A stretch of 64,000 bases of DNA from Escherichia coli (GCF_044324785.1 NZ_CP172127.1), one strand, 5' to 3'; shown: positions 16,300 to 45,939, numbered from the stretch's first letter. The notes: generated from the letters alone by a model not told the origin. Numbers and translations: made by a program.

Positions 16300-24915
<8,616 letters not shown>

Positions 24916-25113
24916 GCTTACCTTCCCTGAACGAGCTAACATAAATGCGCCCTTTCTAGCACAGCGAAAAAAAGTAAATCCTGATAGCAATATGATTGAA
25001 AATTAATAACTTTTCGTTAAGCAGTTTTGAGTGTGAGTTGCAAGAGGGGAGACTACTGAATTACTCAAGTTTTATAATCGAGGGGAAAATGGTGATGGCG
25101 TTCATAGCAAAAC

Positions 25114-26294: not shown

Positions 26295-26384
26295 GGAGAG
26301 ATGCCGGAGCGGCTGAACGGACCGGTCTCGAAAACCGGAGTAGGGGCAACTCTACCGGGGGTTCAAATCCCCCTCTCTCCGCCA
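26295..26384 (+). tRNA. serU: tRNA-Ser (CGA)
   Basis: 90-nt sequence with long variable arm, anticodon loop CUCGAAA, ends GCCA; prophage integrase lies immediately 3'. Confidence 0.9.
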
Positions 26385-32884: not shown

Positions 32885-33313
32885 CTATTTTGTCTGGTTT
32901 TTGGCTTCAAGTAGTTCTTTTAGCAGTAGATCGAAGTGCTCTCTTTTTTCTTTTAGCTCATTGATTAGTTTATTTTTTTCGCTCTCAGGCAGTCCTCTGA
33001 ATAGTTGCAGTAGAGCCTGTTCTTGTGGGGTTAGTTCTTGATTGTAATTACCGGGGTGTAGCGTGGATTCATCCAAATATTCTCCTTCATTCATGAAGAA
33101 AAAATGAACAGGGTATCCGGTCACTTTTGCTAGCTTGTCTAATTTATCTTTTCTTGGCGTTACCCCATTACACCATGCCTGAACTGATTGAGCTGTAACC
33201 CCAATATGGCGAGCTAACTCAGATTGAGACCAGCCTAAGTCTTTTAGAATCCGTTGTAGTCGGCTAGCAAAAGCCATGTTTTTCGTTTTTGTGTTCATAC
33301 CGTAAGGATACAA
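32885..33313 (-). CDS. prophage repressor (XRE-family HTH, cI-like, no S24 peptidase domain); start uncertain (TTG 33313, ATG 33298 or 33277)
   Basis: HTH motif GWSQSELARHIGVTAQSVQAWCNG; divergent from Cro-like gene. Confidence 0.75.
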   Translation of the reverse strand: MYPYGMNTKTKNMAFASRLQRILKDLGWSQSELARHIGVTAQSVQAWCNGVTPRKDKLDKLAKVTGYPVHFFFMNEGEYLDESTLHPGNYNQELTPQEQALLQLFRGLPESEKNKLINELKEKREHFDLLLKELLEAKNQTK

Positions 33314-38220: not shown

Positions 38221-38444
38221 ATTGACTTAGAAAAAGCCCGGGGCTATAGTTTCCGCGCAGCCGCAAAATCGGTTGCCGGGATTGGCGTCCCGGATATCTA
38301 AGTGACGCATAGCCGCGTTAGCGGTTTTTTTATGTGTTAGGCACGGCCACATTCGCATTATGGTGGGCTGTGTGGGGGCTTCTGCGGAAGCGCCGGGTTC
38401 ACTTAGCCGGTTACGCCAACCCTGCACAGTTCACCACCAGATGA

Positions 38445-39137
38445 TTGGCGTCGCTGGTGGTGATGAAAAAAACACTAAGTGAGGCCACTGCGATGACAAT
38501 CCAAATATCTGCGGAATCCCTTTCTCCGCTACATCATAACCAACTTCCCGTCATCACTACTGAATTGCTTGCCAGTTTGTATGGCACGGAAGTAAATGGT
38601 ATCCAGCAAAACTTCAAGCGCAACATCGCCAGATTTGTCGTAGGAAAGCATTTTTTTAAGCTGGAAGGTAATGAATTACGCGACTTCAAAAACAGACTGA
38701 CAGATAGTCAGTCAGTTGCTAAACATACCCGATCCCTCATTCTCTGGACAGAACGCGGCGCAGCTCGCCATGCCAAAATGCTGGAAACAGAACAGGCCTG
38801 GGAAGTTTTCGAAAAGCTGGAAGATTGTTATTTTAGCCAGCGTCCAGAGAGGCGGAGTACAACTACCGATGACCGTACTCCCTTACGTGATGCCGTTAAT
38901 ATGCTGGTCGGTAAGAAAGGCATGATGTATCCCGATGCCTACACCATGATTCATCAACGCTTCGCCGTCTCTCACATAGAACAACTGTCACAGACGCAAA
39001 TGTTAGAGGCGATTGAATACATCCACTGCCTGCTACTCGATGAAAATCAACCAACCATTCCAGATCACCACTATCAAAAATGGAAAAGTGACCAGAATGC
39101 GCCATGTTGCCAAAGGCGAACATCTGATGACCTTTGA
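38445..39137 (+). CDS. ORF6N-domain antirepressor / Rha-like regulatory protein; start uncertain, 3' region possibly frameshifted into ORF 39013..39270
   Basis: N-terminal pattern LPVITTELLASLYGTEVNGIQQNFKRNIARFVVGKHFFKL resembles ORF6N antirepressor domain. Confidence 0.55.
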   Translation: MASLVVMKKTLSEATAMTIQISAESLSPLHHNQLPVITTELLASLYGTEVNGIQQNFKRNIARFVVGKHFFKLEGNELRDFKNRLTDSQSVAKHTRSLILWTERGAARHAKMLETEQAWEVFEKLEDCYFSQRPERRSTTTDDRTPLRDAVNMLVGKKGMMYPDAYTMIHQRFAVSHIEQLSQTQMLEAIEYIHCLLLDENQPTIPDHHYQKWKSDQNAPCCQRRTSDDL

Positions 39138-39299: not shown

Positions 39300-39377
39300 T
39301 ATTTGCGCTTAAAAAGGTATTTAGTCACAACCAGCACGAGGCCGAATACTCTGTCAAAGTACCGCCCATGTAAAACT
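39300..39377. repeat. decayed copy of the 3' end of the two-TM gene (direct repeat partner of 42901..42978)
   Basis: about 92% identical over ~78 bp to 42901..42978, with a 1-bp deletion that frameshifts the encoded C-terminus. Confidence 0.75.
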
Positions 39378-39447
39378 GTAACGTATGTACTTGATGACTA
39401 AGCTGGCACCAGGTTAACACCAGGCGCCAGCTTGAAGGAAACTTCAG

Positions 39448-40996: not shown

Positions 40997-41194
40997 ATGT
41001 CATATATTCGCGTAGAGAAAGATGGCCTTCAGTATGAAGCAGAATACTTCCGTAAAGAGGATATGGTCACAGTCTTTGGGGTTAGAGGAGGGCATTCCAG
41101 CGTGGTTCTAAATGGAATGACAGAAGTCGCGGCTGCTCGTACTGCGTTACGAAATCTTATTAGAGAAAATCAGGTTGATCCTCTAACTGATTAA
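40997..41194 (+). CDS. hypothetical small protein (AT-rich cassette)
   Basis: 65-aa ORF. Confidence 0.35.
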   Translation: MSYIRVEKDGLQYEAEYFRKEDMVTVFGVRGGHSSVVLNGMTEVAAARTALRNLIRENQVDPLTD

Positions 41195-41398
41195 AAATAA
41201 GCCATCTTAACTGAGAGCATATTTTGATATAATTTAGATTAAATCTATTTTGAAGGTTAGTTTGGGATGAGAAGATTACATCAAAACCGTTATTACTAGC
41301 AATAAGTTGTGTAAATCAAATAATACATAATCATGTGGTAACATATACTAAGCGTAGTAAAGTTTTTATATATTCCTGTAACTTTGTGAGAAACTTCC

Positions 41399-42064
41399 AT
41401 GAAAGCCGACAACTTAAGAATTATAGAGAATGGCAAATATGTTTTCGATATGTTCTTGGATACTGGTGAATTTTACTATACAAGTCATGCCTTTGACACG
41501 AGAGAAGATGCAAAAAGCTGGATGGAAGAATGGCAGATTTGGGCAAATAATGTATCGAGTGGGAAAGTAAGTAGTATTTATTATATTTTACAAGTGCCTG
41601 ATACTTGGGCCGGTTCTTCAGATAAAAATAACCCTTACTCGGGACTTTATGTGAAAATAGGGCGTTCCAATAATGTGCTAAAAAGGTTGTCTAACCTGCA
41701 GACAGGTGCATTTGGTCAATTAATATTACACGCTTTGGAACCTGGTGGTTCAGAAAAAGAAAACTATCTTCATGAAAAATTTAGCAACGAAAGACGTCAA
41801 GGTGAATGGTTTGTTTGTACTAAGGAACTTACCAAGCATATATTTACAACATGGTTTAAAAACAAAATGCTCCCACCAGAACATCAAATAAAAATAATGC
41901 AGCTCGCAGAAAGAATAGGTATTTATTCGCATGTTCATACACTAATGGGGGGGAAGCCAGACTTAGTAAACCCATCTATTAGTGAACCTTGGGAATGCGA
42001 AAAATATGTTTTGGTTGATATGATTTATAGCTCTTTAGCAAAGCAAGTTAATCATAAAAAATAA
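41399..42064 (+). CDS. T5orf172 (GIY-YIG superfamily)-like protein
   Basis: 221 aa; core GLYVKIGRSNNVLKRLSNLQTG...ENYLHEKFSNERRQGEWFVC matches T5orf172/MUG113 pattern. Confidence 0.5.
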   Translation: MKADNLRIIENGKYVFDMFLDTGEFYYTSHAFDTREDAKSWMEEWQIWANNVSSGKVSSIYYILQVPDTWAGSSDKNNPYSGLYVKIGRSNNVLKRLSNLQTGAFGQLILHALEPGGSEKENYLHEKFSNERRQGEWFVCTKELTKHIFTTWFKNKMLPPEHQIKIMQLAERIGIYSHVHTLMGGKPDLVNPSISEPWECEKYVLVDMIYSSLAKQVNHKK

Positions 42065-42384
42065 AGTGTTACATTTTAACCATACAATTATTGATTCACT
42101 AATGAAGAGGTGATTTAAACGTATGAAGTTTTAATAAGCTCCAAGAATATTTTGTCATACATGGGTTAAAGAGTTATATAATAATATCTGCTTCTGGAAT
42201 ACAGCAGACAAGCACCTGCAGATAAAGGTCTGCTGAGAGCGAGAAGCGGATCATACGTTGGAAGTTGTTTAGGCAAATACGTTATAAACGTATTTGATTA
42301 AATTTACTTGGATCATAGTCTTCAATAACGCTTTATTATATTGTTTTTCATGCAGCAAACAGGTTTACAGGTAGGTAATAAGCT

Positions 42385-42789
42385 ATGAGTGGATGGAAAG
42401 AGTCTTTTACATTAGCAGAACAGATACAATTAGCATTAAATTTAGGTTATGAGGCTGTACCAGATGAAGAGGCATATACTGGGGCATACTTCATTAAAGG
42501 TGGTAAGAAGTGGATCTTTAACATCATCGGTCTCAAAAAGACATTGAATATATCTTCAGATGATGAACTAAGAGGGCAGGATTATGATGTTGATATGTAT
42601 TTCGAAATTCGCCAAAATTGGGCACAATACCAAGATATGATCTTTGGAAGCGAAGATATCACTCCTTCACCTAAAAATGAACTTACTTCAATTTACCATG
42701 ACCTGCAGGTAACGGATGAACCCAGGGAAATGGTGTATCTTTCTGATGGGATGTGGCTGGATCCCAACGGACGAATTGTACAACGATAG
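42385..42789 (+). CDS. hypothetical protein (AT-rich cassette)
   Basis: 134-aa ORF. Confidence 0.4.
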   Translation: MSGWKESFTLAEQIQLALNLGYEAVPDEEAYTGAYFIKGGKKWIFNIIGLKKTLNISSDDELRGQDYDVDMYFEIRQNWAQYQDMIFGSEDITPSPKNELTSIYHDLQVTDEPREMVYLSDGMWLDPNGRIVQR

Positions 42790-42898: not shown

Positions 42899-43504
42899 TT
42901 ACTTGCGTTTAAAAAGGTATTTTGTCACGACCAGCACGAGGCCGAATACCTCTGTCAAAGTACCGCCCATGTACAACTGGAGCGTTAAGTCTTTAAATAC
43001 AAGCCATTCAGCACCAGTGGCAAAAAATACACCATTCATTATCAAAAGCTGGCAAGCAAGGATAATAAGGAACCATTTGCCATAGCGTTTTTTTAGATCG
43101 ATTTCAGCTTCAAAATCTTTGTTGTTGAGTTGTTTGCGCTCATGCTCAGTATCAAGTGAATTCACCTGTTTCACAGATGTGAACTCGGTCAAGATTTTAC
43201 TCTCAGTACGGGTGACTTGTTGAGAGGGGGTAGGAATTGGAATTCTTTTGATTGACGCAGCTACAGCCATTTTGCGAGCTTCGGCAGCTCTTTTTCTGGC
43301 TATTCCGTGAATACGGGCAGACGGTTTTTTTGGAGCATGCGAAACCTTTGTCTGAGGTGAAGTTTCGTCAGGAGACTGAACCGGAGTTTCATCCTCCTCC
43401 GGCTCAACCTCTTCTGCTAACTGACGGTGTAGGTTGAGGGAATCCTTCAGTCGGCGTGCAACTTCCTGTTTGAAACGGCTGTTAAAATCGTCATCCGATG
43501 GCAT
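42899..43504 (-). CDS. membrane protein with hydrophilic N-terminal region and two C-terminal TM helices
   Basis: 201 aa; TM segments WFLIILACQLLIMNGVFFATGA and LYMGGTLTEVFGLVLVVTKYLF; starts 10 nt after peptidase gene. Confidence 0.6.
   Translation of the reverse strand: MPSDDDFNSRFKQEVARRLKDSLNLHRQLAEEVEPEEDETPVQSPDETSPQTKVSHAPKKPSARIHGIARKRAAEARKMAVAASIKRIPIPTPSQQVTRTESKILTEFTSVKQVNSLDTEHERKQLNNKDFEAEIDLKKRYGKWFLIILACQLLIMNGVFFATGAEWLVFKDLTLQLYMGGTLTEVFGLVLVVTKYLFKRK
42901..42978. repeat. intact direct-repeat partner of 39300..39377 (encodes last 26 codons of the two-TM protein)
   Basis: reverse-complement translation gives QLYMGGTLTEVFGLVLVVTKYLFKRK*. Confidence 0.75.
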
Positions 43505-43513
43505 TCTAAAGCG

Positions 43514-44002
43514 TTACCCCAACCTCAAGTTCTTTAAACGATAAGTCATCGCATCGTCAGATACGCCAAAATGATGCGCCATTATATAACTTGGTTGGCC
43601 GTCAGCGTGCAGTTTTCTGACCTCATCTACCGGCATCAGAAGTTCTGCTGCGAACTTGTTCGCAAAAATTTCATCAGGATGCGTTCCGGCGCTTGCGGTT
43701 TCGCCACGTAAATCAACGTACTCATATTCATCGCTATGCGATGCTTGCCGGGCGATGTAATGCCCCAACTCATGCCCACATGAAAAACGTTGACGAACTT
43801 TGTTGTCATCACTGTTTAGAAAGATCGCTGGATCTTGATCTTTTTGTTTAATCAGTGCGCCAGAAACTTTCCCAGGAAGATCGGTAATAAAAACATCTAA
43901 TCCCATGTCGTGAGCAATTTTCGCTGGATCAACAGGGAAACCACGCCCGCACCAGAACGTGTCCAGCACTCGCCGGGCGTGCTCTCTTGGGTTGGTAGCC
44001 AT
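43514..44002 (-). CDS. ImmA/IrrE-family (M78-like) zinc metallopeptidase, stand-alone
   Basis: 162 aa; HEXXH as CGHELGHYI and downstream EIFANKFAAELLMP. Confidence 0.7.
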   Translation of the reverse strand: MATNPREHARRVLDTFWCGRGFPVDPAKIAHDMGLDVFITDLPGKVSGALIKQKDQDPAIFLNSDDNKVRQRFSCGHELGHYIARQASHSDEYEYVDLRGETASAGTHPDEIFANKFAAELLMPVDEVRKLHADGQPSYIMAHHFGVSDDAMTYRLKNLRLG

Positions 44003-44569
44003 AGCTCCTCCAGTTACTGCATTACGATTATTGGTCGAAATATAGACAACATGTTCCGTACCACATTCCTGTAAAAGTGCAAATTCTGCACTTCTGGTAC
44101 GATATTAACTGTTAGTAGTAAAGTCTTCCAGATAAATCACTTTAAAATCGTGTGAATTGCTTGCTTTTTACGCTGCATTGTGGATGGCTCAATGTTTCCA
44201 GTAAAAACATACATGATAATCATGACATTAGTGGTTTTTTAGGCGTCCATCTGTTTCTTAAAAAAATGGATGCCACAAGCGCCCGGATGAGAACAGGAAG
44301 GGAAGGCTATTACATGTGTGATTTATTACATCTGTAAAAAAATACAGATCTAACCTGATCTTTTCATTGAAGTTTTTCTTGGTCCTGGATAGGATCTGGA
44401 GGTTGCGAAGATTTTAGAGTCGCATCAAAGGGAAAGCCCTGACAGCGCCAACTGTCAGGGCCATACAAAAACATCGGTTAATGCTTTCGTTGAGATCTCG
44501 GTTTGGGAGATTACCTCAACCGGGATCCCGTGTAAAGCATTCATTGCCGAAAATGATATAGGTCAATGA

Positions 44570-45608: not shown

Positions 45609-45759
45609 TGACCATAAACGGTTTAATCCCCTATAAAACCGTTTAATAAAATTCACGACGTGAATATAATTGTTCATTATTCCCTCATTGTATCTGGCGT
45701 TATGACAAATGCCATAAAATACTGTATAAATGTACAGGCGGTGGCGTTAGGGGGAAGAC

Positions 45760-45939
45760 ATGAATATTCAAGAATCTATAGGCGAACTACCGGAAACATG
45801 CCGGGCTGTTATCAAGCGTAAGGACGGACACATCGTTGGTGTGCGTGTTCTGACTGATGATGAACGGATTGCCAGCCTGATGGCGTTTCTCGAGTTGGCA
45901 GAAATAGCTGGATATACTATTACACCCCCTGACGCGTAA
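45760..45939 (+). CDS. hypothetical small protein (59 aa, below track threshold)
   Basis: manually translated MNIQESIGELPETCRAVIKRKDGHIVGVRVLTDDERIASLMAFLELAEIAGYTITPPDA; GGGGAAG RBS. Confidence 0.35.
   Translation: MNIQESIGELPETCRAVIKRKDGHIVGVRVLTDDERIASLMAFLELAEIAGYTITPPDA

Follow-up and report, generated by a model that had tools for sequence, protein, structure and literature searches.

What does a stand-alone zinc peptidase of the ImmA/IrrE type do beside a small membrane protein in a prophage, and does such a pair belong to a system that is already known? The question is raised by two neighbouring genes in a stretch of 64,000 nucleotides from Escherichia coli (GCF_044324785.1, NZ_CP172127.1; hereafter the window, meaning the whole stretch that was analysed), which encode a 162-residue peptidase of the M78 family and a 201-residue membrane protein. 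An earlier note, made from the sequence alone, described the pair as a two-gene operon in which a signal-sensing peptidase might govern a membrane effector, and did not recognise it as a characterised system. Here we report that the pair is homologous to RmrA_D25/RmrT_D5, the RosmerTA toxin-antitoxin module of Gordonia phage Kita. We think it probable that it is a toxin-antitoxin and phage-defence module of the RosmerTA type, NetFlax D25-D5 subtype, which is carried as prophage cargo and works as proposed below. Full-text searches, which took in two defence-discovery papers of 2026, found no description of the window pair itself; the link came through the RosmerTA literature.

Results

The gene pair is homologous to a tested RosmerTA module

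Kita genes 32 and 33, encoding RmrA_D25 (YP_009301393.1) and RmrT_D5 (YP_009301394.1), have been tested experimentally (Ernits et al. 2023, PNAS, PMC10440598). Expression of RmrT_D5 halts translation, transcription and replication, with rapid depolarisation and permeabilisation of E. coli; the full-length protein is toxic alone and is neutralised, incompletely, by RmrA_D25 (PMC10440598). The native Kita operon protects E. coli against the BASEL phages Bas54 and Bas59 only (PMC10440598).

In BLASTP the window peptidase and RmrA_D25 aligned along their whole length, with 43% identity in 157 residues (E 7e-41). When the peptidase was compared with 50,697 phage records by tblastn, the top match was one E. 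coli phage fragment, followed by a block of Gordonia phages in which Kita stood at 43.5% identity (E 3e-30). For the membrane protein, hmmsearch with a profile of its family matched RmrT_D5 at 29 bits over the whole hairpin, while the best of 15,011 composition-matched shuffles reached 10.6 bits; hhalign of the family against RmrT_D5 gave 92.8% probability (E 4e-7, 77 columns), and phmmer with the Kita toxin matched intermediate family members directly, at up to 37.5 bits (P0252). Since both proteins match and Kita has the same gene order, peptidase then toxin, with abutting genes (a 4-nt overlap), we take homology of the whole module as established, the toxin part of it being remote. The earlier note itself had named homology to a characterised system as grounds for giving up its view of the pair, and this is what was found.

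The likeness extends to the architecture. In both modules the first gene encodes a stand-alone M78 peptidase of about 160-180 residues and the second a small protein whose N-terminus is disordered and whose C-terminus forms a membrane hairpin of two helices; the genes are adjoining or overlapping, and a temperate phage carries them. On the other hand, the window toxin has 201 residues and that of Kita 119, the former having in addition a conserved helix at the N-terminus and a linker that is long and charged, and the window pair resides in a lambdoid prophage of a proteobacterial host whereas Kita is a Gordonia phage.

Annotation libraries give little on the membrane protein. No Pfam, PADLOC or NCBIfam model matches it, and its only family match in PHROGs is phrog_5346, over the full length and of unknown function. 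A tblastn search of the GenBank phage collection returned no match, and one of the plasmid collection returned a single weak match, in a 4.9-Mb E. coli record. PADLOC 2.0 run on Kita also gave no match for the validated toxin, and the pattern of capP and RmrA matches to the Kita RmrA was the same as for the window peptidase. Thus, the silence of PADLOC on the window toxin reflects a gap in its library and is not counter-evidence.

Both open reading frames (ORFs) were found on the minus strand where the earlier note had placed them (Table 1); the gap between them, given there as 10 nt, measures 9 nt. Compared with close E. coli alleles, both are under purifying selection (dN/dS 0.09-0.27) and are therefore real genes.

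Table 1. Positions of the gene pair, of the parts of its products and of associated elements in the window.
Feature	Position	Strand	Remarks
rmrA-like peptidase gene	43514..44002	-	162-aa ImmA/IrrE (M78) zinc peptidase, single domain; predicted antitoxin
rmrT-like gene	42899..43504	-	201-aa membrane protein; predicted pore-forming or depolarising toxin
N-terminal amphipathic helix, codons 4-33	43406..43495	-	pLDDT ~90 with or without the peptidase
Disordered charge-segregated linker, codons 34-111	43172..43405	-	pLDDT <55 in toxin-alone and fusion models
Conserved cytoplasmic juxtamembrane segment, codons 112-143	43076..43171	-	QVxxLDxE...LNNxDFEAEIxLKKxYGK, conserved in alignment A1
Two-helix membrane hairpin core, codons 144-197	42914..43075	-	Alignments A1, A4 and A6; hydropathy; AlphaFold2 helices
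Shine-Dalgarno GGAGGAG of the peptidase gene	44005..44011	-	Read from sequence
Nested inverted repeat	44058..44100	-	Outer arms GTACCA/TGGTAC, inner arms AAGTGCA-GAATT-TGCACTT
Promoter-like TGGAAG-17 nt-TAATAT	44102..44130	-	Read from sequence; function inferred
Frameshifted 85-nt copy of the toxin-gene 3' end	39300..39384	-	blastn 90.7% over 86 columns; tblastn fragments

The peptidase consists of the catalytic domain only

The HELGH motif and EIFANKFAAELLMP, which the earlier note had quoted, are both in the peptidase. Pfam Peptidase_M78 (PF06114) matches residues 32-157 at 2e-17, and PHROGs assigns the protein to phrog_87, a metallo-protease family (1e-29). The catalytic residues are H77-E78-L79-G80-H81 and E120; the HELGH motif and E120 are invariant across six peptidase orthologues, and such conservation argues that proteolysis is likely to be important. 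Peptidases of the Enterobacterales clade are 76-100% identical to each other. The structure model has the fold of CapP and IrrE, the best structural matches being CapP 7t5t and IrrE 3dte.

Matches to the longer peptidases were partial. The PADLOC capP profile matched at 1.6e-25 but was covered only at positions 3-151 of 242, and in the PADLOC RmrA models (E 3e-12) only the peptidase part was aligned (e.g. positions 166-266 of 363); against the NCBIfam model of the spr1629 repressor/antitoxin family (377 aa) the peptidase scores 26 bits, where the cutoff is 335. The protein ends at residue 162 and contains no GAF sensor domain of the kind present in CapP and IrrE, and no ORF with a helix-turn-helix (HTH) domain lies within 600 nt upstream or downstream of the pair.

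The membrane protein combines a variable tail with a conserved hairpin

The membrane protein is made up of four parts, namely an N-terminal amphipathic helix, a disordered linker, a juxtamembrane segment and two C-terminal hydrophobic helices. Residues L19, L23 and R27 of the N-terminal helix are invariant in alignment A1; this helix is restricted to the Enterobacterales clade, and the wider family is without it. The linker ranges from 0 to about 100 residues among orthologues, varies in sequence too, and has a relaxed dN/dS of 0.5-0.7. Charges are segregated, residues 1-45 carrying a net -6 and residues 46-100 a net +9.

In the hairpin, the 44-sequence alignment A4 shows no variation at Q152, N157, G164, G181, T182, E185 and F187, and in the 71-sequence alignment A6 each of the seven is invariant or at least 90% conserved. 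Of the two transmembrane (TM) helices that the earlier note had assigned to the C-terminus, TM1 (about residues 144-165) stands out as hydrophobic, its highest Kyte-Doolittle value over 19 residues being 2.17. TM2 (about residues 173-197) is marginal in the window protein (1.56), because T182 and E185 lie inside the helix, and passes the threshold in homologues. AlphaFold2 folds residues 119-164 and 172-197 into a helical hairpin. A topology with both ends in the cytoplasm would fit the KKRYGK sequence before TM1, the KYLFKRK sequence at the C-terminus and the net charge of -1 in the loop. The polar residues Q152, N157, T182 and E185, together with three glycines, would fit a polar pathway across the membrane formed by oligomers.

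The toxin gene is preceded by the peptidase gene in all lineages examined

For the membrane protein, a word-indexed search gave 48 relatives; those with a taxon label were all from Gammaproteobacteria, mostly Enterobacterales. A profile search of 1.84 billion cluster representatives gave 720 at E<=1e-3, all of them small and sharing the C-terminal hairpin core. Pairing was counted in independent lineages with readable upstream DNA (n=22), and gaps were measured in 19 pairs. An M78 peptidase of about 160-190 residues is encoded directly upstream of the membrane-protein homologue in 22/22 lineages, with a peptidase-to-toxin gap of -17 to +11 nt. Thus, the co-occurrence in other genomes which the earlier note had asked for was seen in every lineage examined.

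The bacteria among the 22 include Klebsiella, Serratia, Plesiomonas, Buttiauxella, Pectobacterium, Endozoicomonas, Silvimonas, two E. coli types and two Salmonella types; the others include IMG/VR viruses, a contig of 54% GC, Gordonia phage Kita and a Clostridia-like contig of 27.5% GC in which the pair is next to GerA genes. The pair occupies various positions. It is located in a nin-like region (as in the window), between a tRNA attachment site and the integrase gene, or between Q and the lysis genes; it also occurs in integrative elements with primase and AlpA genes and at one non-phage chromosomal site. The association is incomplete in the reverse direction, as one 45%-identical peptidase has no such membrane-protein neighbour. 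No conserved third gene was found beside the pair in the inspected loci. The toxin family spans several phyla and is always preceded by this peptidase subfamily; a long extension at the N-terminus was gained in the Enterobacterales clade.

Two unusual loci may be mentioned here. In a metagenomic protein of 130 residues (P0217), the N-terminal ~45 residues of the peptidase are joined directly to the two-TM toxin core, which looks like a deletion that fused both genes and would be further evidence of their adjacency in that lineage. At the right end of a P2-like phage genome (NC_070905, L063, 2989-4165), a 161-residue ImmA-like peptidase, 37% identical to that of the window, is followed by an unrelated 159-residue protein with two hydrophobic segments; this may be another combination of a peptidase and a membrane protein.

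The pair has its own upstream region

The nested inverted repeats which the earlier note had placed at 44057..44099 are real and were located one nucleotide further on (Table 1). As RNA the repeat folds at -18.3 kcal/mol (z -4.0), and 0/200 shuffles were as stable; in a Salmonella locus (L010) its outer arms are retained and the inner stem is different. It lies at the predicted 5' end of the transcript and could be a leader hairpin or an operator. The promoter-like element is also seen elsewhere: the arrangement CTGGAAG...TT(A/T)ATAT recurs in the same Salmonella locus and in another E. coli locus (L006), whose upstream regions otherwise differ. The sequence GGAGGA before the peptidase start codon is kept in most loci of the pair. 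No conserved non-coding element common to the upstream regions of all lineages was found, and an Rfam scan of the region upstream of the window pair gave no match.

The peptidase gene and a divergent phrog_3941 ORF are separated by 600 nt, in which a LexA-like palindrome, CTGTAAAAAAATACAG, is present at 44332-44347; a strong hairpin (44435-44462) is found near it. The palindrome is 330 nt upstream of the pair and 200 nt beyond the conserved promoter-like element; it is kept in close E. coli relatives and absent from the other lineages of the pair. Because the site is restricted to close E. coli relatives and lies beyond the promoter-like element, SOS control of the pair was not assigned.

The pair is a cassette in an exchangeable region of a lambdoid prophage

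The window contains a lambdoid prophage integrated at tRNA-Ser (26295-26384). The integrase gene comes first; next are a repressor gene, whose short HTH product has no S24 domain, then cro and a gene resembling YdaT. Replication genes follow, then the accessory stretch in which the pair resides, DUF1367, DUF1364, Q, and the lysis and head genes. The pair is transcribed opposite to the flanking phage genes. At 95-99% nucleotide identity the pair is present in 449/5,426 complete E. coli genomes. A scan of genome contigs returned only 2 loci, one of which, from Escherichia whittamii (L013), is 100% identical in both proteins; by this identity the window itself would probably be E. whittamii.

Near-identical E. 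coli prophages carry different genes immediately after the membrane-protein gene: a GIY-YIG protein with a 134-aa ORF in some, IS1 in one, and a 266-aa ORF with a transposase fragment in another. In the window this variable cassette (40997-42789, plus strand) comprises a 65-aa ORF, a 221-aa GIY-YIG-family protein (phrog_8130) and a 134-aa ORF without a family, for which PADLOC gave no matches of note; in related E. coli prophages these genes are swapped for other genes or IS elements. A second, frameshifted copy of the toxin-gene 3' end (Table 1) follows an LprI-like lipoprotein gene and is a recombination scar at the other edge of the variable cassette region; the same scar, alone, was found in four IMG/VR prophages (L026-L029).

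Synonymous divergence also changes abruptly within the intact toxin gene. It is 0.28-0.35 in codons 113-201 (42899-43165) and at most 0.14 elsewhere in the gene (at most 0.09 in codons 1-36), whereas the peptidase gene does not exceed 0.03. This jump, about ten-fold and at about codon 113, marks a recombination breakpoint inside the toxin gene. The conserved end of the gene that codes for TM2 appears to be the recombination anchor for cassette exchange. Given the variable downstream genes, the 3'-end scar and the divergence breakpoint, the description of the locus as an accessory hotspot with cassette exchange is sound. That of a self-contained two-gene operon within it is also supported.

Discussion

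How the module would work

The 201-residue protein would be a small inner-membrane protein with a cytoplasmic N-terminal tail and a C-terminal hairpin containing the polar residues Q152, N157, T182 and E185. We propose that the hairpin assembles into a leak or pore, by which the membrane potential would collapse, and that the toxin is kept in check by the M78 zinc peptidase, a minimal enzyme of the cytoplasm. Most likely the peptidase would bind the juxtamembrane segment and cut there, as an enzymatic antitoxin. Both genes would be translated in the lysogen from a single transcript made at their own promoter. An infecting phage would upset the balance, and the build-up of intact toxin would then depolarise the cell and abort the infection; the trigger might be that the peptidase is inhibited or lost, or that some factor acts on the variable tail. 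We infer from the homology that the window pair behaves like the Kita pair, and proteolytic neutralisation and the trigger are put forward on the same footing. A narrower version, in which the antitoxin docks on the juxtamembrane segment and clips the toxin continuously, with the hypervariable toxin tail or a phage inhibitor of the peptidase serving as the infection sensor, is tentative and in our judgement rather less likely to be right than wrong. If true, the clipping antitoxin would be a protease-based neutralisation, a mode not yet demonstrated for any Rosmer system.

Some structural hints came from a model in which AlphaFold2 was given the peptidase and the toxin joined by a (G4S)5 linker, with 17 paired rows and unpaired homologues. 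The fusion model reached pLDDT 82 and pTM 0.73, and the toxin alone pTM 0.34. Toxin residues 104-133 rose from pLDDT 50-64 alone to 76-84 in the fusion, and a beta-bridge at toxin residues 112-113 appeared only in the fusion, which resembles a substrate-like strand in a zincin cleft. The juxtamembrane segment may thus be a candidate docking or cleavage site for the peptidase, weakly suggested by the model. Confidence in the N-terminal helix did not differ between the two models, which gives no sign that it docks.

Several points weigh against the proposal. The data on toxicity, neutralisation and defence come from the Kita pair only and from no proteobacterial member, and the identity of the window toxin to RmrT_D5 is only 25% in the hhalign match, i.e. 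remote. The ~90 extra N-terminal residues of the window toxin have no assigned role. The docking and cleavage idea is weak because of the covalent linker, because the alignments behind the two models differ, and because the model was judged without coordinates or predicted aligned error; the published AlphaFold complex of RmrA_D25 and RmrT_D5 was also unreliable (pDockQ 0.05; PMC10440598), and neutralisation could occur by binding instead of cleavage. No known defence genes were found beside the pair within the window. The lack of a PADLOC 2.0 model matching the window toxin has little weight.

Alternative explanations

The earlier note's idea of a toxin or abortive-infection module agrees with the toxicity and phage protection of the Kita homologue, although not as a novel system. 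Its suggestion that the peptidase senses a signal and switches on the effector has the less likely polarity, because in Kita it is the membrane protein, at full length and on its own, that is toxic, and the peptidase acts as the antitoxin. In that scheme an infection signal would switch the peptidase on, the toxin tail would be cut off, and the released hairpin, inert until then, would kill the cell. ImmA, IrrE and CapP are indeed signal-activated peptidases that cleave the product of a neighbouring gene, the long variable tail could be an inhibitory pro-domain, and the fusion model suggests docking at the juxtamembrane segment. However, full-length Kita toxin is toxic alone and is neutralised by its peptidase, the stretch ahead of the conserved core is only ~15-40 residues long in many family members, leaving scant room for a pro-domain, and the window peptidase has no sensor domain, as its partial coverage of the capP profile shows. 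We therefore regard activation by cleavage as unlikely. It is somewhat less likely still that the pair acts purely in addiction or stabilisation, or that the membrane protein serves in superinfection exclusion, without any abortive-infection role. The toxin-antitoxin architecture, the retention of the pair in a degraded Salmonella prophage, its location at prophage ends and the narrow protection given by the Kita system (only 2 BASEL phages) would all be accounted for in this way, but the Kita homologue does protect against phages, and the repeated hotspot relocation and the recombination scar are typical of defence cargo.

The least probable of the alternatives, to which we give very little credence, is that the peptidase is an ImmA-like anti-repressor which cleaves the short HTH repressor and induces the prophage, the membrane protein tethering or regulating it. 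ICEBs1 and some phages are indeed induced by peptidases of the ImmA type; the CI of this prophage (32885-33313), an HTH protein of only 142 residues, has no S24 domain for self-cleavage; and the LexA-like palindrome lies upstream of the pair. However, that palindrome is missing from other lineages, and no HTH gene adjoins the pair. Moreover, the prophage already has two candidates for antirepression, C4/isrK with Ant and the LexA-boxed 59-aa ORF described below. Peptidases that are 76-100% identical accompany different repressors, including a self-cleaving S24 CI (L012), and the peptidase is also found in a decayed prophage remnant (L010) and at the non-phage chromosomal site (L032), so that a role as prophage inducer is hard to sustain. 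A holin or lysis role was rejected as well, since the pair is usually outside lysis cassettes and often transcribed against phage operons.

Relation to other systems

The RosmerTA reading is sharpened by comparison with related systems. RosmerTA as first defined (Millman et al. 2022) consists of a zinc-peptidase antitoxin beside a toxin of an unrelated, variable family, a plan which the window pair shares. The RmrA of that definition has ~360-400 residues with an N-terminal HTH and the peptidase, whereas the window peptidase has 162 and no HTH, and no PADLOC RmrT model matches the window toxin. A Tn-seq preprint reports rmrA and clpX to be essential in Pectobacteriaceae strains with Rosmer systems, which points to a role for ClpXP in those systems.

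ImmA/ImmR (ICEBs1, phage phi105), IrrE/DdrO and CapP/CapH have the same peptidase fold and catalytic motif as the window peptidase, and a common working principle is plausible, namely a peptidase that acts on the protein encoded next to it. Their partner is an HTH repressor, whereas that of the window peptidase is a membrane protein; in addition, the window pair differs in having no GAF or HTH domain in the peptidase and no regulated operon downstream. The adjacent HTH repressor of an ImmA/ImmR-type switch is absent from the pair, the prophage CI being 10 kb away. CapP has two domains, M78 and a C-terminal GAF with a groove for single-stranded DNA (PMC13228613). A CapP-like sensor was rejected on account of the missing GAF domain, and neither CapH nor CBASS was found near the window pair.

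An ImmA/IrrE-type peptidase domain is also part of PD-lambda-2, a defence system of E. coli (Vassallo et al. 2022), but that system has three components, among them a HigB-like toxin and an Xre-peptidase fusion; the PD-Lambda-2_B model did not match the window peptidase at E<=1, and matched the Kita peptidase only at E 0.018. On the toxin side, PanT_D11, the two-TM effectors of CBASS and Pycsar, and holins are likewise small hairpin membrane proteins likely to act through loss of membrane potential. No sequence relationship of the toxin to any of these was detected, and the match of one toxin-family member to the PADLOC '2TM' effector model (E 0.023) is at chance level.

Implications

The pair is a native Escherichia example of a Kita-type RosmerTA module. 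The kind of module was already known from Kita; the Escherichia pair, the breadth of the toxin family, its N-terminal extension and the role of the toxin gene as a recombination junction are new. A toxin that was reported in 2023 without detectable relatives belongs to a large family across several phyla (the 720 cluster representatives above), which current defence annotators miss because no Pfam, PADLOC or NCBIfam model matches it, and a profile of the family would allow such loci to be annotated. The E. coli version, with its natural host and natural phages, is convenient for studying the neutralisation of a membrane toxin by an ImmA-type peptidase and the trigger of the system.

Other features of the window

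The prophage carries further regulatory elements. At 38244-39137 (plus strand), Rfam finds isrK and a C4 antisense RNA, with a1/b1 target sites directly before an ORF6N/anti-repressor gene (38445-39137), which together form a P1 immI-like antisense-controlled antirepressor module within the lambdoid prophage. At 45720-45939 (plus strand), a near-consensus LexA box, TACTGTATAAATGTACAG, stands 22 nt ahead of a 59-aa ORF (phrog_340, unknown function). As the prophage repressor is a short HTH protein without an S24 domain, this ORF may encode a small SOS-controlled antirepressor.

Outside the prophage, an EFASI sRNA (2851-2978) and a second C4-type antisense RNA (4413-4501), both on the minus strand, adjoin a 1393-aa ORF (4881-9062), and these features may belong to another mobile element. 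An ORF of 2896 aa (16300-24990, minus strand) adjoins tRNA-Asn and tRNA-Ser; near the corresponding tRNA-Ser insertion site of a related E. coli locus (L008) there is a gene for a 2367-aa inverse-autotransporter/Big_1 adhesin.

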